Under the pieces are notes generated by a model. It saw only the letters and a list, made by a program, of their open reading frames with translations. It did not search any database and was not told where the DNA came from. A stretch of DNA of 64,000 nt from Oligoflexia bacterium (GTDB lineage: Bacteria; Bdellovibrionota; UBA1018), in the NCBI GenBank assembly GCA_903895855.1, contig CAITVN010000080.1, positions 48,092 through 112,091 of the forward strand, given 5' to 3'. Position 1 is the first letter of the stretch, and every line of letters begins with the position of its first letter. Both the position numbers and the translations under genes were made by a program. Below are positions 28,880-45,884 of the stretch, one piece after another.

Positions 28880-29677
28880 ATGAAGCCATCCGCACCATCG
28901 TCCCTGTCACACTCAGTCGTTTTGCTTTTCGCCGTCTGTCTACAGTTTGTGATGGTTTCAAAATTAGTCTGGGCTGAATCGCCGATTGTCTCGAATATTC
29001 AACCAGCACCCGGCCCAGGTGAAGTTGACTGGAACACAGTTCAAATCGATACCGCCGCCACTGAAGGAATTCGCCTCAAATCGACTGCAAAACCGAGTTG
29101 GTCACTTTCAATTGATACCGGACTTCGCGAAGTCGCCGCATTCGGCCTACTTCAAAACTCGATCAAGTCGGCAGCACCGCACCTTCTCATCAAGGGGCGC
29201 CCAATGGGCTTAAGCAACTCCGAACCTTCGCTTTTTTTACTCACCGTTCACACGCAAACCAACCGATCAAAACTGAGTTCCCCCCAAGCTCAACAATTCG
29301 TCTACCCGGGCACAATCACAGACCCAAAAACCGGCGAGAGGGTCTACGAGGCGAGGGCCTTTTTTGGATCGTGCTTGAGCAATCGCCCTGCTGTCTACGT
29401 GAGCTTCCAAAAAGAAAAGGTAGACCGCAAACACAAGAGCCAACCCAGCGTCTTTATCGCCGAACCTGTCGGTGATTTGATCGAAGAGACCTTAATCGAA
29501 AGACGCCCTCCATCGATACAAGCGACCCTAAAAGCTGTAAAACGCGGAACTTGCAAAGAAATTGCTGGCATATCGAGAAGAATCTTGGCAAAACCACTCG
29601 ACTTGACACCGAGAAAAAATGGTGATGAATCAACCGATCTGACCGATGACGCCAAAGAAACAAATCGAGACGAATAA
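28880..29677 (+). CDS. hypothetical secreted protein
   Basis: 265-aa ORF with signal peptide (VVLLFAVCLQFVMVSKLVWA). Confidence 0.4.
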   Translation: MKPSAPSSLSHSVVLLFAVCLQFVMVSKLVWAESPIVSNIQPAPGPGEVDWNTVQIDTAATEGIRLKSTAKPSWSLSIDTGLREVAAFGLLQNSIKSAAPHLLIKGRPMGLSNSEPSLFLLTVHTQTNRSKLSSPQAQQFVYPGTITDPKTGERVYEARAFFGSCLSNRPAVYVSFQKEKVDRKHKSQPSVFIAEPVGDLIEETLIERRPPSIQATLKAVKRGTCKEIAGISRRILAKPLDLTPRKNGDESTDLTDDAKETNRDE

Positions 29678-30309: not shown

Positions 30310-32163
30310 ATGTCATATACTCAAATTCGTAACGCCTGCATCATCGCCCACGTCGACCATGGTAAAACTACCTTAGTTGATCACCTGCTTCGACAATCAG
30401 GCACCTTTCAATCACACCAACGTGTTGAAGAACGAGTCATGGACTCAATGGACCTTGAGCGAGAGCGCGGCATCACGATTTTAGCTAAGAACACTTCGGT
30501 TCGAGTGGGTGACGCAAAGATCAACATCGTCGACACCCCGGGCCACGCTGACTTTGGCGGCGAAGTTGAACGCATCATCGGCATGGTTGACGGAGCTTTG
30601 TTGCTTGTCGACGCGGCCGAAGGCCCACTACCTCAAACTCGATTCGTGCTGAGAAAAGCCCTCACACAAGGTCTGAAGGTGATCTTGGTTATCAACAAAG
30701 TTGATCGCCCTGACGCGAGAACTGACGAAATCGTTAACGCCGCGTTTGACCTATTCATTGACCTTGGCGCCACTGACGAGCAAGCGCATTTTCCGATCGT
30801 TTACGCCTGCGCACGACAAGGGTGGTGCACCACCGATCGCGCTGAAATGGAATTACTACTCAGCGGTGAGAAAAAAGGAAATTTGAAGCCCCTTTTCGAC
30901 CTGATCTTAAACACCGTACCACCGCCAAAAGTTCAAAAACTTGAACCCTTCGCCATGATGATTTCAAACCTTTCGTATTCTGATTATGTCGGTCGCCTTT
31001 CGATTGGCCGAGTTACCGCAGGCACCATCAAAAAGAATCAACGCATTTGGAGATTGAACGAAGGCAAACCCCAGAGCTTTGTTGCCACCCAACTCTATGT
31101 GTTCGAAGGACTCAAGCAAACTGAAGTTCAAGAACTCGAAGCCGGAGAAATCGGCGTCATCGCTGGTTGCGAAGAAACTGAAATCGGCGACACCATCGCT
31201 GACTCTGAGTTGACCCAACCCATGGTACGAATCGTGGTCGAAAAACCGACCCTCGCGATGCTGTTCTCTGTGAACACCTCACCGCTTTCAGGCAAAGAAG
31301 GCGAAGCCATTCAGTCTCGAAAATTAAGAGACCGCTTGCTTCGTGAAGTGAGGCAAAATGTGGCCTTACGACTTGAAGAAACACCGACCACCGACCAATT
31401 TAGAGTCTTAGGTCGGGGTGAACTTCAGTTTGCGATCTTGATTGAACAAATGAGACGAGAAGGTTTCGAGTTCATGATCGGCAAACCGACCGTGCTTTAC
31501 AAAATTGCCGAAGATGGCGGCCGCTTAGAGCCGATGGAGCGAGTCATCGCCGATGTACCTGAAAAGTACGCTTCAGACGCAACCCGACTGTTTCAAGAAC
31601 GAAAAGGCTTATTACTCAAGTACGAAGGCGGATCATCTCACGGCGGTGACCGCGTACGCCTCGAGTTTGAACTGCCTACCCGCGGCTTACTCGGTATGCG
31701 CTCGAAATTCATGACCATCACTCGTGGCGAAGGTCTGCTCAATACCTTCTTAAACGGCTTTGCGCCGCACAAAGGCGAGCTACCTCACCGAAACAGTGGT
31801 GCGCTGATTTCTGACCGCGCCGGCGATACCGTTGAATACGCCCTTCTCACACTCGAAGAACGCGGCGTCTTATTCTTGCGCCAAGGCGTGCCGGTGTACG
31901 AAGGCATGATCATCGGTGAGAACGCCAAAGAAAACGACATGAACGTCAACCCTTGCAAAGCCAAGAAGCTCACGAACATTCGTGCGGCTCACGCCGAACT
32001 CCTGGTCACTTTGTCTGGCATTCGAGACATGTCACTTGAGCAAACCCTCGAGTGGATCGACGAAGACGAGTGGATTGAAGTCACTCCGAAGTCGATTCGC
32101 ATTCGCAAGAAAGTGCTCTCGGGCAATCTTCGAAGCGTGAAGCGAGAAGACCGAATTAAGTAA
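30310..32163 (+). CDS. typA: translational GTPase TypA/BipA
   Basis: [23 protein letters not shown]1, DTPGHADF G3, NKVDR G4; 617 aa. Confidence 0.9.
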
Positions 32164-32178
32164 GATTTTCTCAGGTAA

Positions 32179-32227
32179 GAAAAAAAAGGGGGCCTAGGTG
32201 ATCTTCGATCAACTAGGCCCCCTTTTC
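32179..32227. terminator. bidirectional rho-independent terminator between convergent typA and downstream gene
   Basis: aaaaaaaa-gggggcctag-(15 nt loop)-ctaggccccc-ttttc. Confidence 0.7.
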
Positions 32228-32248: not shown

Positions 32249-34036
32249 CTACTTCATGAGTTGAATGTAGGTGGGTCGCAAGACCTGCCTCATCAAGAAA
32301 GAGCTGGCGTTTTGAATCAAAGTGGCTTGAGTCTTGATTTCTGAGTATTGAGCCCCAGCCCCAGCAGCACTCGTAATGATGCGCCAGTAGTGATGATCGA
32401 GGGTTGAAAGCGAAACCGTTCGAACAGGTGACATCGCGTTGCCCCAGTCTTCTAGAGTGAAAAGTTCCCACACATTGATGTGATTCGAGTTGATATTAAA
32501 GCCTTCGCCGCCACCATTTTCGGCAGTCAAATACACTCCTTCAGAGTCTCGAAAGGCACCTTTATAAACCTTGGTTCCATCATTTTGGGTATACGGTATT
32601 TCTAGGTAATCAAACCCACACCACTGTCCTGCCTGATTACCCCCCACTTCACTAAACATGACGAGTGAGGCCTCTTCAGAAAAATCTGACCTTCGCAGGC
32701 AGCGATTATCTTTCAACGTATTAGAATTCTGAAGAATCACTTTAACTCCTTCTAAATCAACCAGGTCAAACGACTCCCAAACTGAAGGCTGCACACCAGC
32801 AACATTCACCTCGCCACCTCCGCCGAGCTTTGCTTGAAGAAAATGATTTTTGTCTGAAGACCTAAACCCAACTGTTCCGTTTGGTTTAGACACTGACTTA
32901 AAAATCTCCCAAGAATCTAATTGAGTTGCAGAGGTGTCTGTTTTGCCACCACCCCCATTTTTTGCCGAAATGTAATTACCGTTGGGCAATTTGAAGGCAA
33001 TGCTATTCGAAGACTGCGAGTTCAAATAACCGAGGTCAATCAATCTAAGCGTCGTCTCAGGTATGATGTAAGTAGCCTCGGCATTTAAGTTACTTTGATT
33101 CTGCAAGTTCACTCCCACATAAGTGCCAGTTTGAGTCTTCAGTGCAACTCGACGGCCATTTAACTCAACCACTTTGAGAGTGGTGGTGAGGTCTTTGAGT
33201 TTTCCTAGACCAGTGAGAAGAGTCGAAGTTAAATTTGAAGTCCCCAGCAGCATACCATAATAGGTGTGCAAATAATCAGTCTTCGAAACCGATCTGAAGT
33301 GATCAAACAACTCCCAGTCGTCGATGTGGTCTTTCGAAGCCGTAATTGCGCCTAATCCGTTGTCGGCACTCAAGTACAAGCCATTCTTTTTTGAGCGATA
33401 GGCAAAGGTTCCATCAAGAAGGTCTACCCGGTAAAACGTTTCATCGGTGCCAATCCAGCGTGAATCAAACTTTACGGTGCCATCGTCATAAGCACGTAAG
33501 TATTTCTCAAGGTACTGGTGGCGAATCGCAACGGGTTCGCCATTTAACCAAATTCCTTTAAATTGAGCTTGTTTAATATTTGAAGTCACGGCGGTCGCTT
33601 CAAGAATCCACTGGCCATCGGTTTTTTCAGTAATTCTCAAAAACTTGCCGTTTGCTGCCACAAATGCCCAAGTATTCGAAAATAGGTCTAAAGAAACCAT
33701 CCTAAAAGTCTCGTTCATCCCAGGATTCGACACCTTCATCGCGCGAATGAGACCCGAATCTGAATTGATCAAACTGAAATACAATCCGCCATTCGTCTTA
33801 AGTTGAGCCTGATTGTCAAACCCAGTGTTGTCAAATGACTGGGCCGGACCAATTTTTTGAGACTCGGCGGCAATGGTTTTCAGTTCTGACGGGTCAGATT
33901 CTTGAATACTGAGATACAGACCGTTATAGGCACGATAGGCCCTACTTCCCGCATTTGCACCAGAAGTCGTTAAAGTAGCGATTACAAGTAGCATCGATGT
34001 CATCATTTTTTTCATAGGCTTTATTCCTTTTTGCAC
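32249..34036 (-). CDS. secreted protein of tandem fascin-like beta-trefoil repeats (paralog A)
   Basis: signal peptide; about 11 repeats of G-x-Y-L-S/T-A...G...W-E-L/I-F pattern (e.g. KKNGLYLSADNGLGAITASKDHIDDWELF); about 75% identical to 37580..39391. Confidence 0.55.
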   Translation of the reverse strand: MQKGIKPMKKMMTSMLLVIATLTTSGANAGSRAYRAYNGLYLSIQESDPSELKTIAAESQKIGPAQSFDNTGFDNQAQLKTNGGLYFSLINSDSGLIRAMKVSNPGMNETFRMVSLDLFSNTWAFVAANGKFLRITEKTDGQWILEATAVTSNIKQAQFKGIWLNGEPVAIRHQYLEKYLRAYDDGTVKFDSRWIGTDETFYRVDLLDGTFAYRSKKNGLYLSADNGLGAITASKDHIDDWELFDHFRSVSKTDYLHTYYGMLLGTSNLTSTLLTGLGKLKDLTTTLKVVELNGRRVALKTQTGTYVGVNLQNQSNLNAEATYIIPETTLRLIDLGYLNSQSSNSIAFKLPNGNYISAKNGGGGKTDTSATQLDSWEIFKSVSKPNGTVGFRSSDKNHFLQAKLGGGGEVNVAGVQPSVWESFDLVDLEGVKVILQNSNTLKDNRCLRRSDFSEEASLVMFSEVGGNQAGQWCGFDYLEIPYTQNDGTKVYKGAFRDSEGVYLTAENGGGEGFNINSNHINVWELFTLEDWGNAMSPVRTVSLSTLDHHYWRIITSAAGAGAQYSEIKTQATLIQNASSFLMRQVLRPTYIQLMK

Positions 34037-34048
34037 ACGTTAATTATT

Positions 34049-34891
34049 TTATTCACACGCCGGAGTCGTCACCACGATTGTGGTTCCGTCTTCGGGTTTT
34101 GAAGTCACCCAAACGGGGCAAGCTCCGTTTGAACAATCGCGAAGTTGGGCTTCAGTTGAGGGTTGAGAACCAGACATTCCGCCTCCGTCGACATGAAGGG
34201 TAATGACCAGGCCACACTGGTTTTTCGGAGTCACTTCAATATCAAACACCGCCAGAGAATTCGGAAGCAATTCAGAATCGTACAACCCAGTGACGGCAAA
34301 AGCCGAAGAGGTTCGTTTACCCAAGGCTTTAAAACTTTCACTCTCGACCGACTTCAATCCCCCACTCTGAAATTCGCCGAGAACACTTCCGCCAACCTTG
34401 ATTTGCTGTATAGAATTTTTATCAGTTGTCGAGACAACCACAAAAACTGGCTTCAATACCCATCGGTTTTTTAACGATATCTTTTTTTGAGAGTTCAATG
34501 GCCAATCTGCGCGAGTATTCACCAAAGCAATCTTAAAGACTCGAGGTGTAGTCGCGGCTTCAGTGCCATCGGCCAGAGTGCCATCGGTGTGATAGTAGTA
34601 TTCAGGCGAGTAAGACCATCCATAGATCTCGTTAGTGCTCTTTTGGTCTTCTCGAGAATGGGGATCTCGAAGAATATTTCCAGCAAGAAACGATGGGCAC
34701 ACAATGACTCCGTCGGTCCAGGCATCAGTATTCATGGCACTGGTGACAAATTCAGGCACTTCGCTCGGCAAAAGGTTTGGCCTAAAATCGACGGGATTAT
34801 CAGACACACAACCAGCGACCCCGGCGACGAAGCCCGAAACACTCAGGGCGGCAACTAGGCGATACATTAGATTTGAGATAATCAGTTTCAC
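34049..34891 (-). CDS. hypothetical lipoprotein (operon partner of paralog A)
   Basis: lipobox VAGC after signal peptide; 280 aa; 12-nt gap to upstream gene. Confidence 0.45.
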   Translation of the reverse strand: MKLIISNLMYRLVAALSVSGFVAGVAGCVSDNPVDFRPNLLPSEVPEFVTSAMNTDAWTDGVIVCPSFLAGNILRDPHSREDQKSTNEIYGWSYSPEYYYHTDGTLADGTEAATTPRVFKIALVNTRADWPLNSQKKISLKNRWVLKPVFVVVSTTDKNSIQQIKVGGSVLGEFQSGGLKSVESESFKALGKRTSSAFAVTGLYDSELLPNSLAVFDIEVTPKNQCGLVITLHVDGGGMSGSQPSTEAQLRDCSNGACPVWVTSKPEDGTTIVVTTPACE

Positions 34892-35010
34892 AAATTGATC
34901 CTTTCAAGTTTGTTGAGTCAATACTAGACTAAAACGATCAAGTCAATATAGCCGGGCACTTATATTCTTGGCATTACGTTTACCTAATGAGTTGCCGCAG
35001 TTAGCGCTGA

Positions 35011-36816
35011 ATGATAGCAATCGCCGAAATGCTGACAACTCTGATTACGTTATTTTTATTCGTCGAAACCCAAACCCACGCTTCTGTCGATCAAGTAGCC
35101 GTCGGAGGGTTTCACACCTGTGCTATCTCGGGCGACACCCTGACCTGTTGGGGAAACAATCAACTCGGCCAAACCGAAGTGCCAGCTGATCTTGGCATAC
35201 CGCTTTCAGTTGCAGCAGGAACCACTCGAACCTGCGTGCTCGCGCTGAAAGACTCAAAAAAATCGCTTCACTGTTGGGGTGAAGGTAACAACGAAGAGAA
35301 AGAATACCCTCGCCCATCAGATGTCGAAGGCATGACTGCAATCAAAGGCGGAGTAGAAGGCTTTTGTGGAGTGTATCAAGACTCTAGCACCCTCAAGTGC
35401 TGGGGGTCGCCATACTCGATACCACGACGCCATTCGCTACCCGACAGCCTGGCATTTGGAGTCGGCTGGGCGTGTGGACTTTTACCCGATGGTGCAATCG
35501 CTTGCTCGGGAGAAGTTGATCCTGCCTCTCAAAAAATTCCCGCTCAAGTACTGGGCGGCAACGCGGGCCAGATTTGCTGGGCAGACTCAACCGGCTTACA
35601 CTGTGAAACGTCGCTTGGGGCTAACATTCCGGGATCACTCAAGACTCCTTCGATCAACAGACAAATCAGAAAAATCGTCGGAGGACTTCGATTTGGCTGC
35701 GCACTCGACGAAAGTCGCACGCTCATTTGCTGGGGCAACGATTTTGGATCGCTGCCCTGGAATAAGAAAATTGGTCGCCAGGTAGAAGCTGTAGACGACG
35801 TCTTTTCGTCAGGCGTGGGCTTACACCTTTGTCTAAAGAGAAATGGCGCGCTAGAATGTTTTGGTGACAATTCGTACGGGCAACTCGATGTCCCGCAATC
35901 TCTCAGCCCAGCAAAACCGACACCTGCGGCGCCAGAAAACATAGCCAAAAACGTGAGCGATCAAGATGTGCGCGTCACTCAAATTGGTGTTGGCGCCTGG
36001 CATACCTGCGCTAATGTCAATGACACTCCTAAATGCTGGGGCGGTTTCACGCTCTATGGCCCGGCAAAAATTCCTTCTCGGGTAAAAAATGTCATTCGGT
36101 TTACAGGCGGTGCCATGCACACTTGCGCTCTCACTGAACCAGAAACGGGTAAACGAAAAGTCGAGTGCTGGGGAGCACAAGATCCAGAAAATCTAACAGG
36201 ACCTCCACTTTTTCCGATTTTTCCGGTGCCTGAAGATTTAGGTTTTGTCACCGAAATTGCCTCGGGCAACACTCATGTCTGTGCACTCAATTCCGATCAC
36301 GAGATGCGCTGCTGGGGAGAGCTAGACCCTCCTCACTTTGTCGCGGGGGTCAGGTCAATGGCATTAGGCCTTCATTTTACTTGCTACATTGACTTAGAAG
36401 GGTCAGTTCATTGCTCAGGCCCAGACAGTCCTAATTTACCTGAGAATGAATTGAAAAATGTAAAGGCGATCGGAGCCACACTCGAATCGATCTGTGCAGC
36501 GTTCGAAAGCGAAGTGAAATGCTTTAATCTAGAAAAATTAATGCCAGCTTCGCTCAAACTAGTAGGAGTGCGCAAGATTGTTGGCGGCTGGAGCCATGTC
36601 TGCTTTTTAACTGTGTCAGAAGAGTTGCACTGTGTGAGCGAGAAGAAATTAGAAAGCCTCATCAGCTCGCCCATTCCTGAGCACCTATCTGAAGTACAAG
36701 ATGTCGTTTCACAGTCTGGTCAACACATCTGCATCCAGACACAAACAGGGGTAGCTTGTTATGGCAACAACTCGTTTGGCGGTCAATCCCTCACCCCTTC
36801 GAACGGAGACCTATGA
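35011..36816 (+). CDS. secreted RCC1-repeat (beta-propeller) protein
   Basis: signal peptide; about 10 repeats with CWG/GQL signatures (VGGFHTCAISGDTLTCWGNNQLGQ, LECFGDNSYGQLDVP, KCWGG, ECWGAQD, RCWGELD). Confidence 0.6.
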   Translation: MIAIAEMLTTLITLFLFVETQTHASVDQVAVGGFHTCAISGDTLTCWGNNQLGQTEVPADLGIPLSVAAGTTRTCVLALKDSKKSLHCWGEGNNEEKEYPRPSDVEGMTAIKGGVEGFCGVYQDSSTLKCWGSPYSIPRRHSLPDSLAFGVGWACGLLPDGAIACSGEVDPASQKIPAQVLGGNAGQICWADSTGLHCETSLGANIPGSLKTPSINRQIRKIVGGLRFGCALDESRTLICWGNDFGSLPWNKKIGRQVEAVDDVFSSGVGLHLCLKRNGALECFGDNSYGQLDVPQSLSPAKPTPAAPENIAKNVSDQDVRVTQIGVGAWHTCANVNDTPKCWGGFTLYGPAKIPSRVKNVIRFTGGAMHTCALTEPETGKRKVECWGAQDPENLTGPPLFPIFPVPEDLGFVTEIASGNTHVCALNSDHEMRCWGELDPPHFVAGVRSMALGLHFTCYIDLEGSVHCSGPDSPNLPENELKNVKAIGATLESICAAFESEVKCFNLEKLMPASLKLVGVRKIVGGWSHVCFLTVSEELHCVSEKKLESLISSPIPEHLSEVQDVVSQSGQHICIQTQTGVACYGNNSFGGQSLTPSNGDL

Positions 36817-37571
36817 AGATCATGAGTTTCACCTCGCTTCTGACTACCTTTTTCGCCATTGCCAATTTTTCGCCCAGTATCGCACCCGCACTTGCCGGTG
36901 ATCCGGCTGATGATTCACCTCATGATTCATCTCATGTTACAATCGAGCCCGCTCAGATTGATTACCTTTGCATCGCAAGCTTAGTGCAGTTTGCTCCGAA
37001 CACTTCTAAACCCACATTATTAAACTCAGATTCAGCCCCAATCGTCTTTCGACGCAAAGTAGCGAGTTCACTTGGCGGTTCACCAGGTATTTCATCAAAC
37101 AATATAATTGAAGAAACGTATCGATTTAGAATTGCTGCCACCAATCTGTTAACTAATTTAACCAATCGGGCCGAAGAGATAATCCCCCTTCATTCTTTAA
37201 GAGAAGAATTTCCGGGTGTTTCACACCCGAAAGTTGTCGTGTCGTTTACACAATCTGGCCCAGTCAGCAATTGGCCTGGTCAGTATGTATTTGGTGCCAT
37301 TCAAAATGATCAAGGCGACTTCGCTGGTTGCCAAACATTCAGCTATCCTACCGTTAGGTCTTGCAGTGCCACAGTCGCAGTGAATGACGCCGCCCGCGAC
37401 TTTTCGGGTCTTGCCCAACTACACTGTGCTTCGACTGACGAATTGAAGCAAGATCAGGTCAAGCTGTTCAGTTCCAACTCAAAGGCTGACGTCGGAACCC
37501 AAGAACTATTGAGTGAAGTGACTCGCACCGTAAAAGCTTCAGCAAAAAAGACGCCATCGAAAAATCAATAA
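36813..37571 (+). CDS. hypothetical secreted protein
   Basis: ATG 36813 after GGAGA SD; signal peptide MKIMSFTSLLTTFFAIANFSPSIAPALA. Confidence 0.4.
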   Translation: MKIMSFTSLLTTFFAIANFSPSIAPALAGDPADDSPHDSSHVTIEPAQIDYLCIASLVQFAPNTSKPTLLNSDSAPIVFRRKVASSLGGSPGISSNNIIEETYRFRIAATNLLTNLTNRAEEIIPLHSLREEFPGVSHPKVVVSFTQSGPVSNWPGQYVFGAIQNDQGDFAGCQTFSYPTVRSCSATVAVNDAARDFSGLAQLHCASTDELKQDQVKLFSSNSKADVGTQELLSEVTRTVKASAKKTPSKNQ

Positions 37572-37579
37572 TTTTAGCC

Positions 37580-39391
37580 TCACGGCTTCATCAATTGAAT
37601 GTAGTTTGGTCGCAAAAACTGACGCATCAAGAATGAGGTACCATTCTGAATCAACTTTGTCTGCGCAGTAACCTCAGAGACTTGAGTTGAATCAGCGGGA
37701 TAAACAATTCTCCAAAAGTGCTGATCTAAGGTCGAAATCGAAACCGTTCGCACAGGCGAATTCGCGCTACCCCAATCATTTAGAGTAAACAATTCCCACA
37801 CATTAATGTGGTCGCTATTAATCTCAAACGCTTCGCCACCACCGTTACTGGCCGTTAGGTAATTTCCCTCGGTATTGCGAAAAACGCCTTTGACCACCTT
37901 AGAGCCGTCAGGCTGAATGTACGGAATTTCAATGTAATCAAATGAACACCAAATTCCTGCTTGATTGCCTCCAACTTCAGGATTCATAGCCAAGCTGGCT
38001 TCATCAGCAAGACCTATCGTGCGCACACACCGGTTGTCTTTCAAGGTATTCGAGTTTTGAAGAATCACCTTTTTTCCTTCTAGGTCGACCACTTCGAACG
38101 ACTCCCACTGGCCCGATTGCGTTCCCGTCACATTCACACTACTGCCTCCACCCGAAGCCGCTTGAAGGTAGTGCTTTTTGTCAGAAGTTCGAAATGACAG
38201 CACTCCGTTCGGTTTCGATACGACCTTAAAGATTTCCCACGAGTCGACGGCGGTTGCAGTCGTACCGACGCTAGTACCACCGCCATTTAAAGCAGTGAGG
38301 TATTTGCCATTAGAAAGTTTGATTGCAACTGCATTGGCTGCCAAAGAATCGAGATAACCTAAATCAACGAGGTTCATCACTGCCTCTGAAGGTATTTGAA
38401 TAGTCTCGGCCTTAAGCGGCTGTTGCGCCTCTGCGTCTAGAGTCACATAATTGCCGGACTGGGTCTTGAGCGCAACCCGTCGGCCATTGAGCTCGACCAC
38501 CTTAAGCATGGTTGTGAGGTCTTTGGTTTTTCCAACTCCACTCAAAAGGTCAGACGTTTTCGATGCGGTACCCAAGAGCATGCCATAGTAGGTATGAAGG
38601 TAATCGTTCTTCGCTGTCGTTTGAAAATGGTCAAAAAGCTCCCAGTCGTCAATGTGATCTTTCGACGCGGTGACCAAACCCAGCCCGTCTTCGGCACTGA
38701 AATACAAACCGTTCTTTTTTGAGCGATAGGCAAACGTACCGTCAAGAAGATTCACTCTGTAGAATGTTTCGTCTGCACCAATTCGATTAGAGTCGAACTT
38801 TAATGTTCCATCATCGTATGCCCGCAGATACTTTTCAGGGTATTGATGACGAATTGCTACCGGCTCACCATTTAACCAAATTCTTTTAAACTGAGCTTGT
38901 TTAATAGAAGTTGAGGTAGCAGTGGCCTCCAGAACCCATTTGCCATCTGGCTGTGCTGTAATTCTCAGATACTTACCATTCGCGGCCGCAAACGCCCAAG
39001 TGGTGTAAAACGGATCGAGCGAAACCAATCTGAAAGTCTCATTGGGTCCCGGCGTCGAAGTTTGAATTGCACCCATAAGTCCTGAGTTAAAGTCTATGAC
39101 ACTAAGGTAAAAGCCATCGCTTGTTTTCAACTGCGCTTGATCACCTCCTATTATTGGGTTTTCAAAACTCTGAGAAGGACCGATTCGTTGAGAATCAGCT
39201 ACGACAGTTTTCAATCCGGTTGATGATGAATCTTGAACACTGAGATAAAGATTATTGTAGGCACGATAAGCTCTTGGGCCGGCGCTTGCCAGTGTTGAGA
39301 TCGACAGACTCGCAGCGAAAACGATTAAAACAGCGAGAGCACTCTTTGTCAGATTCAGCATTTTATTTTTCATAAACGTCTTTCTTTTCAT
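37580..39391 (-). CDS. secreted protein of tandem fascin-like beta-trefoil repeats (paralog B)
   Basis: 603 aa; collinear with paralog A throughout (shared RAYRAYN, GEPVAIRHQY, DHIDDWELFDHF, NVWELFTL, SFLMRQ). Confidence 0.55.
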   Translation of the reverse strand: MKRKTFMKNKMLNLTKSALAVLIVFAASLSISTLASAGPRAYRAYNNLYLSVQDSSSTGLKTVVADSQRIGPSQSFENPIIGGDQAQLKTSDGFYLSVIDFNSGLMGAIQTSTPGPNETFRLVSLDPFYTTWAFAAANGKYLRITAQPDGKWVLEATATSTSIKQAQFKRIWLNGEPVAIRHQYPEKYLRAYDDGTLKFDSNRIGADETFYRVNLLDGTFAYRSKKNGLYFSAEDGLGLVTASKDHIDDWELFDHFQTTAKNDYLHTYYGMLLGTASKTSDLLSGVGKTKDLTTMLKVVELNGRRVALKTQSGNYVTLDAEAQQPLKAETIQIPSEAVMNLVDLGYLDSLAANAVAIKLSNGKYLTALNGGGTSVGTTATAVDSWEIFKVVSKPNGVLSFRTSDKKHYLQAASGGGSSVNVTGTQSGQWESFEVVDLEGKKVILQNSNTLKDNRCVRTIGLADEASLAMNPEVGGNQAGIWCSFDYIEIPYIQPDGSKVVKGVFRNTEGNYLTASNGGGEAFEINSDHINVWELFTLNDWGSANSPVRTVSISTLDQHFWRIVYPADSTQVSEVTAQTKLIQNGTSFLMRQFLRPNYIQLMKP

Positions 39392-39559: not shown

Positions 39560-39975
39560 AAAAACGCAAAGTTCTTAGTCACTTTGTCTGGAATTCGAGA
39601 CATGTCACTTGAGCAAACACTTGAGTGGATCGACGAAGACGAATGGATCGAAGTCACTCCGAAATCGATTCGCATTCGCAAAAAAGTACTCTCGGGTAAC
39701 CTTCGCAGCGTGAAGCGAGAAGACCGAATTAAGTAAGATTTTCTCAGTAAATAAAAAGACTTCGCCCCAACTTCATGAGTTGAATGTAGTTTGGTCGCAA
39801 AAACTGCCGCATCAAGAATGAGGTACCCTTCTGAATCAACTTTGTCTGCGCCGTAACCTCAGAGACTTGAGTTGAATCAGCGGGATAAACAATTCTCCAA
39901 AAATGCTGATCTAAGGTCGAAATCGAAACCGTTCGCACTGGCGAATTCGCGCTACCCCAATCATTTAGAGTAAAC
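39560..39975. pseudogene. segmental-duplication remnant: copy of typA 3' end (last about 50 codons + stop) fused to copy of last about 75 codons of beta-trefoil paralog
   Basis: 39586-39735 about 90% identical to 32014-32163 (typA 3' end); 39770-39970 near-identical to 37580-37800 (paralog B 3' end) but junction sequence resembles paralog A stop region; terminator hairpin of original locus absent. Confidence 0.7.
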
Positions 39976-40168: not shown

Positions 40169-41080
40169 ATGAAAGGAATTTGCAGCATGTCAACCCCCAC
40201 TTTTATTCGCTCTCTTAAACCACTTACGCCATTAGCGCTCAGTTTCATCTCTGCGCTGGCAATCGCAGACATCCATGCCGACGAATTGGGTGATCACAGT
40301 TTAGAAATTCATCAACGCCGCCTTCACGTTGGCGAGGTACAAATCGACAGTGGATTTGTAAAAACTCAAGACGGCAGCGGAACCGACGTTAGAATTCAAA
40401 CGTCTCTCGCATCGTTTGACAACACGTTTGGAGACGCAAAGACACTTTACCTTCAATGGACATACCTCGCCGATCAAAAGGGCTACCGAGTACACTTTGG
40501 ACTTGAAGATTCTCAAGTTCTCTTTTTTTGCACCACCTCGAACGGCACGAGCCTCAGTTTTCTTAAATTTATGTCTGATTGCAAACCCAGCACCTTTGCT
40601 GTCGGCGGCAAAGTCCTCGACGTACAAGTCGACACAAACACATCGCGCTGGGCTGTTCGTTGGGCCGAACTCACCGGGGTGATCAATGCACTACAGAACG
40701 GAAACGATGACAGTTACCAGCATAAGCGGCTCAATTTTCTAGGGGGCGCAAGCATTGACACGATTTTTCCGGGCAACACCACAGTGACCCGACTCAACGC
40801 CGGAATGATCGGCATGATTCGCTCAAGAGACAATCACTGGGAACTGCGTGGACAATTCAATTATCGCCCCAACGTTGGCAATATGGCCGACTATGCAATC
40901 GAAGCTAAAGCCTCGGCAGGTTACAACTTCATGATGGGCCCAAGCGCGTTTGCGACAATCGCGGCCACCAGCGAATACGCCCATTGGAGTATGCCCTGGC
41001 ATTCGATCGGTGATTTCACCTCAGATACCGCGACCGACACCGTTTATACTGGACTCTTATTTGATATCAAATGGCAATAG
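40169..41080 (+). CDS. hypothetical secreted/outer-membrane protein
   Basis: signal peptide LALSFISALAIADIHA; beta-rich; ends ...FDIKWQ. Confidence 0.4.
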   Translation: MKGICSMSTPTFIRSLKPLTPLALSFISALAIADIHADELGDHSLEIHQRRLHVGEVQIDSGFVKTQDGSGTDVRIQTSLASFDNTFGDAKTLYLQWTYLADQKGYRVHFGLEDSQVLFFCTTSNGTSLSFLKFMSDCKPSTFAVGGKVLDVQVDTNTSRWAVRWAELTGVINALQNGNDDSYQHKRLNFLGGASIDTIFPGNTTVTRLNAGMIGMIRSRDNHWELRGQFNYRPNVGNMADYAIEAKASAGYNFMMGPSAFATIAATSEYAHWSMPWHSIGDFTSDTATDTVYTGLLFDIKWQ

Positions 41081-41117: not shown

Positions 41118-41930
41118 CTACGTAGAATCGACTCGAAAAAAATCAAGGGTGAGCCCAAAAAGTTGTTCTTCTTTTGACTGCTGTACCGTTTTGAGCCATT
41201 CGGTGAGATCATGAGTCATTTTCGCCTTTAGCCGAACGGCATCTTCGGCCGAAAGGGTTACCACCGATGAGTAATGAACTGTCTCACCAACATGGCGCTC
41301 ACCCAGCGAATCGAGCGAGCGTAATCGCCAATTGGTGTGATGTTGAAAGATCAGGGGCGAGTCATTCTCTAAATGAAGAAGTACTGTTCCTGGCTCAATC
41401 TTGTCTGCGGTCACTTTCACCAGACCGACTTGCTTTAAAAACGAAACCACTTCACCGAGTTTACGAGCCGATAGGCGAAGGGCTTTTTCTAATTTCTTTT
41501 TTTCTTGAAGCGACGGAATGGTCACTGCCATGTGTACGGCTGCATAATGCCACGAACTATAATAAATCGTTTGATTTTCTCTTGATAAGGTATCGTGAAT
41601 TTTTACTTGTTTTTTTAATACCAGTGCTCGTTTTCGTAGATCGTTGAGCTGCTCACTCAAAAGACTGCGTAGCGATTCGGTTCCTGCTCTCGCAAATTCA
41701 ACCAGTACTAAGAAATACCGAATCTCGTCACGATTCAAATTCAAAAACCGTCCGGCGGCCTCAGACTGTTCCATATTGAAATGTTTCGGACCCCCTAGCA
41801 CTTGCGAAACATACGCCGTATGACAGTGGGTCGCCTCAGCAAGCGATAACCGAAATCCCCGAGGGCTCGCTTTTGCCCAATCTAAGAGATATTCTTTATA
41901 GTTTGTGTATTCATAAAGGGTTTTATTCAT
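41118..41930 (-). CDS. TIGR02147-family protein (Fibrobacter/Bdellovibrio paralogous family, putative HTH regulator)
   Basis: N-terminus MNKTLYEYTNYKEYLLDWAKASPRGFRLSLAEATHCHTAYVSQVLGG matches remembered TIGR02147 consensus. Confidence 0.55.
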   Translation of the reverse strand: MNKTLYEYTNYKEYLLDWAKASPRGFRLSLAEATHCHTAYVSQVLGGPKHFNMEQSEAAGRFLNLNRDEIRYFLVLVEFARAGTESLRSLLSEQLNDLRKRALVLKKQVKIHDTLSRENQTIYYSSWHYAAVHMAVTIPSLQEKKKLEKALRLSARKLGEVVSFLKQVGLVKVTADKIEPGTVLLHLENDSPLIFQHHTNWRLRSLDSLGERHVGETVHYSSVVTLSAEDAVRLKAKMTHDLTEWLKTVQQSKEEQLFGLTLDFFRVDST

Positions 41931-42118: not shown

Positions 42119-43501
42119 ATGCGCATGAAATTAAAAGCAAAAACTGATCACCGCCTAAAGTTAATGCCTACTGGTAACACGCCAAGAGCTCTCACCTGCC
42201 TGGCCGCTCTCATCGCGCTCATTGGCCTGAGCTCCACTGTCAACGCCGAATCGAACGAAGGCGGAATCAGCGGTGGCGGTGGCGGTTTTGCCGAAATCAA
42301 AATGAAATCGATTCGCGACGAATTACTCACTTGGGTCAAAAGCCCTGGACCATCATCGCTTGACTTTAGAAAGGCCCACGGACTTACCGAAGCTGAATAC
42401 CGCCTAAAAATGAAAGATATTTTATCTAATTTAAGTGTGCAAATTGGGTCGATTTCGGCTGAAGAAGAATCCAAAACTAACGATCCCGATCTCAAAGTTC
42501 GCGTACAAAACGAACCCAAAGATTGCCGGGGGAGCTTGTGGGCGCGAGACGGACTTCCTCACATTTTGTGCATCGAAAAGCCATTTATGGATGCCAGCTC
42601 AAGTGATCAGTATCGAATGATTCATCACGAATATGCCGGGCTCATCGGGATCGAAAAAAACATCGGACCCAACTCTGACTACAATCTTTCGGAGCAACTC
42701 ACCGAATACGTCGAACCGCAAGTGACCGATCGCCTAGGTATCAAACGAAAACACAAACGAGAACTCACCGGAGATACACTCCGCTATTGGATTATTGATC
42801 ACACCCGCGGACTGACCGTTGAATCATTTTGGCGAAAGACCAGCCTAAAGTTTGACGAAGTCGACGAAAATGGAGAATCCATTTATCAAACGCAGTACAT
42901 GGAACAACCGCAAGCAAGCAAAGGTCGACTTTTTGATTTCGGTTCTGGTTATCCCTACCCTGATGGCACCCCATCGCGACTTGCCGATCGAATCGTCGAC
43001 CATTCGCAAGATGCCGAGGCACTTTTTAAGGCCAATTCGCAAGATAAAGAACCCCTACTGGTTTGTGAGACTGCTAGCCCTATGGAATCACTTAAATTGA
43101 AATTCTCGTTTTATGTTGGCGAGTCTGAGTCAGACCTCCATTGGCGACTTGAGGTCATCAAGCCAACTTACTTCTGGAGTATTCAATTAGGCGCAAAGAA
43201 TCTCAGCGAGCAAGGGCTCTACGAAGCCACGGGGCACTGCGATGCACCAAGCGCTGTAGGTATCACACGCGATGAAGAATTCGCCTCGCTGGCACTAGCA
43301 GATTTCGAATTCAATCACGTGACCCTTGATAATGTCGAAACTGTCTACGACCTTAAGCACTCGGACCATAATCCTAATTTAAGGATGCTTTTTTTGACGA
43401 GACTTTTTGTGCCAGGTGCAAGCTTTGGTGCGGTTCTCGAAGACATCCAAGACTTATCTCCGCAAACTGTGTCAGTGCTAAACTGTCGGGCTGCGAAGTA
43501 A
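42119..43501 (+). CDS. hypothetical secreted protein
   Basis: 460 aa; signal peptide ALTCLAALIALIGLSSTVNA followed by Gly run. Confidence 0.4.
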   Translation: MRMKLKAKTDHRLKLMPTGNTPRALTCLAALIALIGLSSTVNAESNEGGISGGGGGFAEIKMKSIRDELLTWVKSPGPSSLDFRKAHGLTEAEYRLKMKDILSNLSVQIGSISAEEESKTNDPDLKVRVQNEPKDCRGSLWARDGLPHILCIEKPFMDASSSDQYRMIHHEYAGLIGIEKNIGPNSDYNLSEQLTEYVEPQVTDRLGIKRKHKRELTGDTLRYWIIDHTRGLTVESFWRKTSLKFDEVDENGESIYQTQYMEQPQASKGRLFDFGSGYPYPDGTPSRLADRIVDHSQDAEALFKANSQDKEPLLVCETASPMESLKLKFSFYVGESESDLHWRLEVIKPTYFWSIQLGAKNLSEQGLYEATGHCDAPSAVGITRDEEFASLALADFEFNHVTLDNVETVYDLKHSDHNPNLRMLFLTRLFVPGASFGAVLEDIQDLSPQTVSVLNCRAAK

Positions 43502-44957: not shown

Positions 44958-45884
44958 GTGTTAAATCAATTTTATTTAATAAAACATTCTGTTTATCAGT
45001 TTTCTAAGGCAAACCACCCTCAGATCAACTCAAACGCCCCCCAAGCCCCCCAAGCCCGCCGAGCACACTGGGTAACCTTTACTTTGATTGCCGCCGGCAT
45101 ATCGGCCACTTATGCGACTCAATCACTTTTACCCAGCTTATCTCAGGCAGCGGCCCCCTCGCTCCCGGTGTTCAGCAATCAAGTGACCACTGAATGGAAA
45201 AATCCTGACCCCAACTCAACGTTAAAACGAGTGATCTCTCGAACTTCAGATTACAGTGTCAAAATTGGCGATTCGCTAAGTCTCGGCAAACGCATGGACA
45301 TTGGCTTTGAGACCGACACCGTTTCTCACTTAACTGACTATGTGGTCGTTCAGTTTTTAAGGGGCTGTAGCTTCACGAGCCGTTACCACCTTGAGACCAA
45401 AACGACTGAAGCGGTTTTCGATGTGAGCCACTATTCATGGAGCGCCATTGAACCCTTCAAACATGCAGATTGGATTGTTGATTCGGTTGATAAAGACCCC
45501 GTCTACAATAGCTCAGATGACGAAGGTCTCGCTAGGCACTTTGCCTACCGATCGCAACCTAAAATCGGTGGTTTTGAAAAAAGCCAAGGTGAAAAATATT
45601 TCGGAGTCTCGGCACCAGTAAGCCCTTGGATCTACGTGGTCGATCGTCCCGGCACGGTTTTCGTGGGTGACGCAGGCGAAGATGCAAAAAACATTTCACT
45701 CGAATTTCAAACCTGTGTTTATAAAAACTCGGAAGTACCCAACCACTTAAGCAGCGCTCAAGCGGTCGGTGAAATCAAATCAGTACCCCTCTACTGCACC
45801 ACCTGGGCAAGTTCTTTTATCTATAATTTTGAAACCAAAAAATTTGAACGCCCCCAAGGAATTAGCCCGCTTTGCGGCTTCTAA
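44958..45884 (+). CDS. hypothetical secreted protein
   Basis: 308 aa; hydrophobic segment FTLIAAGISATYATQSLLPSL after N-terminal region. Confidence 0.35.
   Translation: MLNQFYLIKHSVYQFSKANHPQINSNAPQAPQARRAHWVTFTLIAAGISATYATQSLLPSLSQAAAPSLPVFSNQVTTEWKNPDPNSTLKRVISRTSDYSVKIGDSLSLGKRMDIGFETDTVSHLTDYVVVQFLRGCSFTSRYHLETKTTEAVFDVSHYSWSAIEPFKHADWIVDSVDKDPVYNSSDDEGLARHFAYRSQPKIGGFEKSQGEKYFGVSAPVSPWIYVVDRPGTVFVGDAGEDAKNISLEFQTCVYKNSEVPNHLSSAQAVGEIKSVPLYCTTWASSFIYNFETKKFERPQGISPLCGF

Follow-up and report, generated by a model that had tools for sequence, protein, structure and literature searches.

Two predicted exported four-trefoil proteins related to CBM92 in an uncultured Bdellovibrionota bacterium: candidate multivalent lectins

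The window analysed here is a stretch of 64,000 nucleotides from an Oligoflexia bacterium (GenBank assembly GCA_903895855.1, contig CAITVN010000080.1, positions 48,092 to 112,091 of the forward strand). It holds a block of five genes, in which two paralogs, here called A and B, enclose a lipoprotein gene, a gene for an RCC1/BLIP-II-like propeller protein and an orphan gene (Table 1). Sequence profiles and a structure model indicate that A and B are exported, stand-alone proteins that consist of four bacterial beta-trefoils of the fascin-like/CBM92/DUF7910 kind and of no other domain. With moderate confidence, both are taken to be multivalent lectins. With about four sites each, they would bind a polysaccharide outside the cytoplasm by its terminal sugars and tether or cross-link it, and an outer-membrane-type lipoprotein could hold A at a membrane surface. 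Several lines of evidence point this way: the nearest relatives belong to the glycan-binding family CBM92, the Trp-Glu sites are conserved despite saturated synonymous divergence (dS) and a protein identity of only 66%, both proteins carry export signals, and there are precedents for secreted proteins built from trefoils only (P0008 and P0023).

The fold assignment can be followed from the domain databases onwards. In Pfam, B is matched above the curated cut-offs by DUF7910 (7.5e-22), FRG1 (7e-13) and Fascin (5e-11), and A by DUF7910 (3.5e-21) together with FRG1 and Fascin. All three are beta-trefoil families. NCBIfam has no name for either protein, no further domain was found in A or B with Pfam and NCBIfam, and the four trefoils (T1 to T4) cover the whole mature chain. 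When the segments of B were scanned singly, trefoil-family matches were obtained for all four, of which that of T3 was significant and the others were weak. The segments were then aligned with hhalign to a profile of 120 single trefoil domains taken from the matches of an exhaustive search. All four fell into the proposed register, with probabilities of 96.9% (T1), 96.8% (T2), 99.7% (T3) and 97.3% (T4). Each protein has 12 subdomains of 41-59 aa (~43 aa) each.

The AlphaFold model of B was calculated from an 11-row alignment with multi-trefoil homologs and fragments. Two other inputs were discarded: an alignment of only A and B gave a predicted local distance difference test score (pLDDT) of 28, and in an alignment padded with single-trefoil fragments all of these were put on T3/T4 by MAFFT, out of register. 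The model that was kept has a mean pLDDT of 64.5, with 70-90 for residues 39-440, and a predicted template modelling score (pTM) of 0.55. Exactly 12 strands are present in each of T1, T2 and T3. In a Foldseek search of the PDB, human fascin-1 came out on top (E ~1e-20, ~530 aligned columns), followed by the four-trefoil mosquitocidal toxin MTX and the two-trefoil HA33. The hhalign probabilities, the strand count and the Foldseek ranking together bear out the four tandem beta-trefoils that an earlier annotation of this DNA (the original prediction) had proposed.

The original prediction had also described the architecture as fascin-like. This is supported for the number and the type of the domains, but not for their packing. 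Compared with fascin structures, the model gave global template modelling (TM) scores of 0.23-0.30 and a root-mean-square deviation of ~20 A, values that belong to a model with a pTM of 0.55 built on 11 alignment rows. Because of these TM-scores, a fascin-like packing is not supported. The same comparison bears on the idea that A and B are bacterial fascin homologs that bundle cytoskeletal filaments. Such an origin would account for the four fascin-type trefoils in each chain, the top rank of fascin-1 among the fold matches and the match to the Pfam Fascin family. However, the packing in the model is not that of fascin, signal peptides are found on both proteins and the relatives in sequence are glycan-binding modules; practically no credence is given to this explanation.

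The glycan-binding relatives were recognised in a sequence search against solved structures. The only significant matches were two CBM92 modules, 7zoh (CpCBM92B) and 7zoi (CpCBM92A), with E-values of 5.3e-9 and 2.2e-7 for the whole of B and of 1.1e-9 and 6.3e-8 for a profile of T3. The WExF motifs of A and B align with those of both modules. In CBM92, the Trp of this motif makes a stacking contact with a glucosyl unit, whose O3 and O4 are hydrogen-bonded by the Glu (PMC11039641). In the beta and gamma sites, an Arg six residues before the Trp additionally contacts O2 of the sugar; the alpha sites have a Ser in this position and still contribute to binding without the Arg (PMC11039641). A WExF at the end of all three subdomains is typical of CBM92, but not universal (PMC11039641).

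In A and B, the first half of the repeat signature (G-x-Y-L-x-A) is recognisable in 10 of the 12 subdomains. The complete W-E-x-F is present in four: T2-beta (W250 in B, W241 in A), T3-beta (W385 and W376), T3-gamma (W429 and W420) and T4-beta (W532 and W523). T4-alpha carries W-C-x-F (WCGF, W472 in A) and also one Cys pair that is conserved in A and B. T1-beta and T2-alpha read x-E-T-F, and the five other subdomains are degenerate. Counted from T1 to T4, the trefoils thus contain 0, 1, 2 and 1 complete motifs, which differs from the three per trefoil of the CBM92 pattern. About 11 repeats of the form G-x-Y-L-S/T-A...W-E-L-F had been announced in the original prediction. The repeats do exist, as 12 subdomains, but the full W-E-x-F half is limited to the four named above.

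The pattern of motifs is the same in both paralogs, with four WExF and one WCxF conserved. That the four complete motifs would retain each of their 12 W, E and F residues by chance has a probability of ~0.007, by the author's own estimate with a background identity of 66% and positions taken as independent. With CBM92 as nearest characterised relatives and four Trp-Glu sites common to A and B, the carbohydrate binding suggested earlier is plausible.

How A and B relate to each other had partly been misjudged. That two paralogous proteins of about 600 aa stand at the ends of the block was confirmed (BLASTP, 808 bits over 589 aa). They are, however, 66% identical as proteins and 65% identical as DNA instead of the ~75% claimed, and the two genes are direct copies on the minus strand, not inverted ones. 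The claimed recent duplication does not apply to them either: non-synonymous divergence (dN) is 0.27 and dS is saturated, the NG86 estimate of dS being undefined across the whole gene and 1.9-2.7 in T3 and T4. The dN/dS comparison that had been proposed as a check gave ~0.13-0.14 where computable. The saturated dS and this low ratio show that the duplication is old and that both copies are under purifying selection. The sole recent-looking duplicate is the 400-bp fossil at 39575-39975.

Conservation between A and B is uneven along the chain. It is highest in T2 (81% identity; 81-85%) and lowest in T3 (57%), and T3 is also the most canonical sugar-binding trefoil. Its divergence would fit differing ligand preferences of A and B. 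Both proteins start with what reads in their sequence as a typical Sec signal peptide (TTSGANA before GS in A, STLASA before GP in B); the original prediction had called them secreted.

Several observations weigh against a lectin function. Trp is absent from 8 of the 12 subdomains. The position of the CBM92 Arg is occupied in B by K (T2-beta), A (T3-beta), G (T3-gamma) and S (T4-beta), and because of these residues the retained sites of B resemble the more open, alpha-type CBM92 site. T2 is the best conserved trefoil (81%) yet has one site only; selection may act on something besides sugar binding, for example on a protein contact. T4 is partly modelled, and the last ~60 residues (540-603) are of low confidence. 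A Sec signal peptide in a diderm is evidence for periplasmic export only, not for secretion. Finally, the propeller and the orphan are tied to A and B by adjacency only, and in one genome population.

The loss of sugar sites in 8 of 12 subdomains would be expected if A and B were protein-binding scaffolds or adhesins. In this case, a rigid array of trefoils would bind a protein partner, for example the lipoprotein, the propeller or a surface protein of a target cell, and the WExF motifs would be structural relics. The high conservation of T2 (81-85%) with its single site would fit as well, and so would the operon-like arrangement of A with the lipoprotein gene. Moreover, eukaryotic fascin, the top fold match, binds protein with the same fold. 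Against this stands the survival of four Trp-Glu motifs and the WCxF in both copies despite saturated synonymous divergence, and the closest characterised relatives bind glycans via exactly those residues. A scaffold or adhesin role is considered unlikely for these reasons, and the interpretation of A and B as lectins is kept.

Relatives of A and B were sought at several scales. A profile built from both proteins gave 1512 matches at E <= 0.001 among 1.84 billion representative proteins. Beyond the A/B cluster itself, no full-length relative was found in this set, and almost all other matches were confined to the T3-beta/gamma region. A word-indexed search with B in 5.8 billion clusters returned only A and B at full length, besides two partial matches. 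At the domain level, the top matches are trefoil arrays on peptidases, phosphoesterases and RTX or cadherin-like regions. A few relatives are secreted and consist of trefoils only, such as P0008 (five trefoils, 740 aa) and P0023 (four trefoils, 613 aa), both with signal peptides. Among 185,579 GTDB species genomes, no relative of A or B was found. Literature searches returned nothing that joins Bdellovibrio and trefoil, and for DUF7910 one unrelated plant paper.

The neighbourhood of typA gave a similar picture. In 80 Bdellovibrionota typA loci, inspected with up to 10 kb of flank, there was no relative of any of the five genes, and the upstream order nfu, orphan, queF, typA was kept in several of them. 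Since relatives of its genes are lacking in 80 of 80 related typA loci, the five-gene block is lineage-specific. The typA protein itself is at best 77% identical to others, namely to metagenome-assembled genomes (MAGs) labelled Bacteriovoracaceae, Oligoflexia or Bdellovibrionia, and a TIGR02147 paralog is found near the locus. On the strength of these two observations, the organism is an uncultured member of the Bdellovibrionota without a close GTDB representative.

The paralogs could also be an assembly artefact, a repeat that was collapsed or duplicated. Short repeats do occur at the locus (the fossil tails of typA and B), and some contigs break nearby. However, five metagenome contigs, which stem from independent assemblies of several samples and projects, contain this DNA. 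Both paralogs, the intervening genes and the fossil are spanned by two of them, with identities to the window of 100% and 99.86%, the latter differing by a single ~17-nt indel only; three more cover parts of the locus at 100% identity. The DNA of A and B, moreover, is only 65% identical. The divergence and the five independent contigs rule out assembly duplicates, a concern raised with the original prediction, so that the probability left to an artefact is negligible.

Table 1. Coordinates of the genes, trefoil segments and other features of the locus (positions in the window)
Feature	Position	Strand	Details
typA	30310-32163	+	directly upstream of the block, convergent with A
Hairpin	32184-32226	.	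typA/A spacer; A-run and T-run at its sides
Paralog A	32249-34036	-	595 aa from GTG start; 588 aa from Met8 in the gene-caller version
A, T4	32252-32752		
A, T3	32753-33160		
A, T2	33161-33544		
A, T1	33545-33955		
Lipoprotein gene	34049-34891	-	280 aa; lipobox VAGC
RCC1/BLIP-II-like gene	35011-36816	+	601 aa; RCC1_2 E=2.9e-29
Orphan gene	36813-37571	+	252 aa; signal peptide
Paralog B	37580-39391	-	603 aa
B, T4	37583-38080		residues 438-603
B, T3	38081-38488		residues 302-437
B, T2	38489-38872		residues 174-301
B, T1	38873-39286		residues 36-173
Fossil typA tail	39575-39736	+	last 54 typA codons including the stop codon
Fossil B-type trefoil tail	39771-39975	-	last 67 codons; convergent with the fossil typA tail

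The three genes between the paralogs were correctly described in the original prediction as a lipoprotein gene, an RCC1-repeat gene and a hypothetical gene with a signal peptide, as the list of open reading frames (ORFs) and Pfam confirm. The lipoprotein gene shares its strand with A and immediately precedes it, with a gap of 12 to 33 nt, and would probably be co-transcribed with it. Its product has the signal peptide and the lipobox with the invariant Cys by which bacterial lipoproteins are recognised (GFVAGVAG before C; LSVSGFVAGVAG before CVSD), and is accordingly predicted to be one. It has no Pfam or NCBIfam family, and the only homolog among 5.8 billion proteins is the protein itself. 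As a partner of A at the membrane surface, it remains a candidate suggested by this gene order.

The RCC1-like gene is divergent from the lipoprotein gene and shares 4 nt (ATGA) between its stop and the start of the orphan; because of this overlap, the two are taken to form an operon. The 601-aa product is matched by Pfam RCC1_2 in 6 stretches and by RCC1 (5e-10). It contains 28 Cys, arranged as 14 C-x9-14-C pairs with one pair per short blade, and a Pro-rich linker near residues 296-315 separates the blades into two sets of seven. Among solved structures, a PDB sequence search ranked BLIP-II (7e-18) and the ectodomain of ACR4 (4e-8) as nearest to the product, and its repeats are closer to those of BLIP-II and of the plant ACR4 'crinkly' family than to RCC1 proper. 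The RCC1-type propeller of the original prediction is hence supported by three features of the sequence (the RCC1_2 match, the BLIP-II match and the 14 Cys-paired repeats), and two seven-bladed propellers of the BLIP-II kind describe the putative fold best. The protein is probably rich in disulfides, and for this reason would be located outside the cytoplasm. A search of metagenomes for this protein yielded a single match, a giant repeat protein that is unrelated (24% identity) and has no trefoil gene in its vicinity.

The orphan has a clear signal peptide (MKIMSFTSLLTTFFAIANFSPSIAPALA before GD), read from the sequence as for the lipoprotein; that of the 601-aa protein is weaker. The orphan gene is called in independent contigs too, and no Pfam or NCBIfam family was found for its 252-aa product.

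Export signals are thus present on all five products, and the five genes might form one module for predation or host interaction, in which the trefoils would recognise a glycan of the prey surface or periplasm and the propeller would bind and neutralise a prey protein. The lineage-specific block and the Bdellovibrionota affiliation agree with this, the latter indicated by typA (77% at best to Bacteriovoracaceae/Oligoflexia MAGs) and by the TIGR02147 gene nearby. The propeller has as its nearest solved relative BLIP-II (beta-lactamase inhibitory protein II), a tight protein inhibitor. However, nothing in the data marks the organism as predatory, the genes are not known to be co-regulated, and no other searched genome carries the combination, so that co-occurrence lends no support. 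A joint module of this kind is judged improbable. A still more specific version is highly speculative. Here, the block would serve an uncultured, possibly predatory, Bacteriovoracaceae-like bacterium as a lineage-specific module for target recognition. Two tetravalent lectins with open alpha-type CBM92 sites would grip terminal beta-linked glucosyl residues (e.g. of beta-1,2/beta-1,6 periplasmic glucans or a prey surface polysaccharide), the lipoprotein would anchor one of them and the double propeller would bind a prey protein.

Around the block, the adjoining typA gene named in the original prediction is in place. The hairpin in the spacer between typA and A has 19 base pairs with one internal mismatch. 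Its RNA folds with -34.1 kcal/mol (z = -4.0), and none of 200 shuffled sequences folded equally well. It is probably a bidirectional intrinsic terminator. In scans for promoter and terminator consensus sequences, the numbers of matches were at chance level. The GC content of the five-gene block is like that of its surroundings, there are no tRNA genes in the window and no other island markers were seen there. ORFs without a Pfam or NCBIfam family are numerous near the locus (e.g. 28880-29677, 40169-41080, 42119-43501 and 44958-45884), several of them with signal peptides, and are interspersed with the housekeeping genes nfu, queF, typA, rlmF-like, enolase and mlaDE. The surroundings are rich in lineage-specific exported proteins.

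The fossil sits 185 bp upstream of B and preserves the ends of two convergent genes. Its typA tail is ~92% identical to 32002-32163, with 12 synonymous and 0 non-synonymous codon differences. The spacer that follows is homologous to the typA-A spacer and lacks the terminator hairpin. The trefoil tail is 96.6% identical to positions 37586-37790 of B (5 synonymous differences, 1 non-synonymous), has lost its stop codon and is matched by the A1 profile at 1.3e-39. An overlapping 121-nt repeat family (39751-39871) is ~77% identical to A. The flank of the fossil is A-type and its coding part B-type. As the differences are almost all synonymous (12:0 and 5:1), the fossil is taken to derive from a diverged functional allele and not from the slow decay of a pseudogene. 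In this source allele, a B-type gene would have been convergent with typA, in the place where A now sits. The pattern implies an origin through recombination or rearrangement, and the fossil shows that the locus was rearranged. JGI metagenomes contained no exact copy of a 77-mer from the fossil typA allele.

Two further observations were made on the metagenome contigs. A contig of ERZ18647913 is identical to the window over 11.8 kb, apart from one ~17-nt indel in a TIGR02147/DUF4423 gene (41118-41930 of the window; 515-1357 of contig L001). The indel alters the length of the predicted product (280 aa instead of 270 aa; 92% identity where the two align) and looks like a population-level indel polymorphism. 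In addition, contigs L001 and L002 both end exactly at 30665, inside typA, which suggests that strain-variable or repeated sequence just upstream breaks the assemblies.

The interest of A and B lies in their arrangement. All CBM92/fascin-like trefoils characterised to date are single modules on glycoside hydrolases. An exported chain that stands alone, is made of four such trefoils and keeps a fixed subset of their sites would, if true, be a natural multivalent lectin with the domain count of fascin. If ligand binding is confirmed, the uses of the domain family would extend to enzyme-free glycan tethering. It would also give the first functional handle on trefoil-only secreted bacterial proteins, which are common in databases and unstudied. 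In a Bdellovibrionota genome, A and B could hint at a step of glycan recognition. In practice their value is modest, since neither the fold nor the family nor the probable binding chemistry is new: within a known domain family, A and B are a variant that is divergent and stands alone, worth noting but not surprising.

Among the known systems, CBM92 is the closest (CpCBM92A/B from Chitinophaga pinensis, PDB 7ZOI/7ZOH; PMC11039641). The beta-trefoil with three ~42-aa subdomains, the signature G-x-Y-v-x-A-E-GGG ... W-E-x-F and the sugar-binding Trp-Glu motif are shared. However, CBM92 modules are single trefoils on glycoside hydrolases and usually have three WExF, whereas A and B are stand-alone four-trefoil chains without a catalytic domain and without the Arg of the beta and gamma sites. 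The two trefoil-only precedents, P0008 and P0023, are uncharacterised. In them too, nothing but tandem DUF7910/Fascin trefoils comes after the signal peptide, and WExF subdomains are likewise mixed with degenerate xETF ones. The two proteins are only ~25-27% identical to B, though, contain long Gly/Pro-rich linkers between the trefoils that are lacking in A and B, and are encoded in gene neighbourhoods unrelated to the A/B locus.

Human fascin-1 (PDB 3LLP, 1DFC) shares the four tandem beta-trefoils in a single chain of ~500-600 aa, belongs to the same Pfam clan and is collinear with the B model over the ~530 Foldseek columns. It differs in sequence (13-15% identity) and, judged by the TM-scores (0.23-0.30), from the model in domain arrangement, and it bundles actin in the cytoplasm, in contrast to the exported, bacterial A and B. 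Botulinum HA33, MTX and CEL-III, the next-best fold matches, use tandem beta-trefoils for multivalent sugar binding. In contrast to A and B, their trefoils are of the ricin-B type (QxW) and not of the fascin/CBM92 type, and they have a toxin partner, for which no counterpart is recognisable at the A/B locus. For the 601-aa protein, the comparison is with BLIP-II (PDB 1JTD) and ACR4, which have the same short RCC1-type blades of ~40 aa. ACR4 has one disulfide-type Cys pair per blade. Both known proteins have 7 blades, whereas the 601-aa protein has 14, probably as two propellers.

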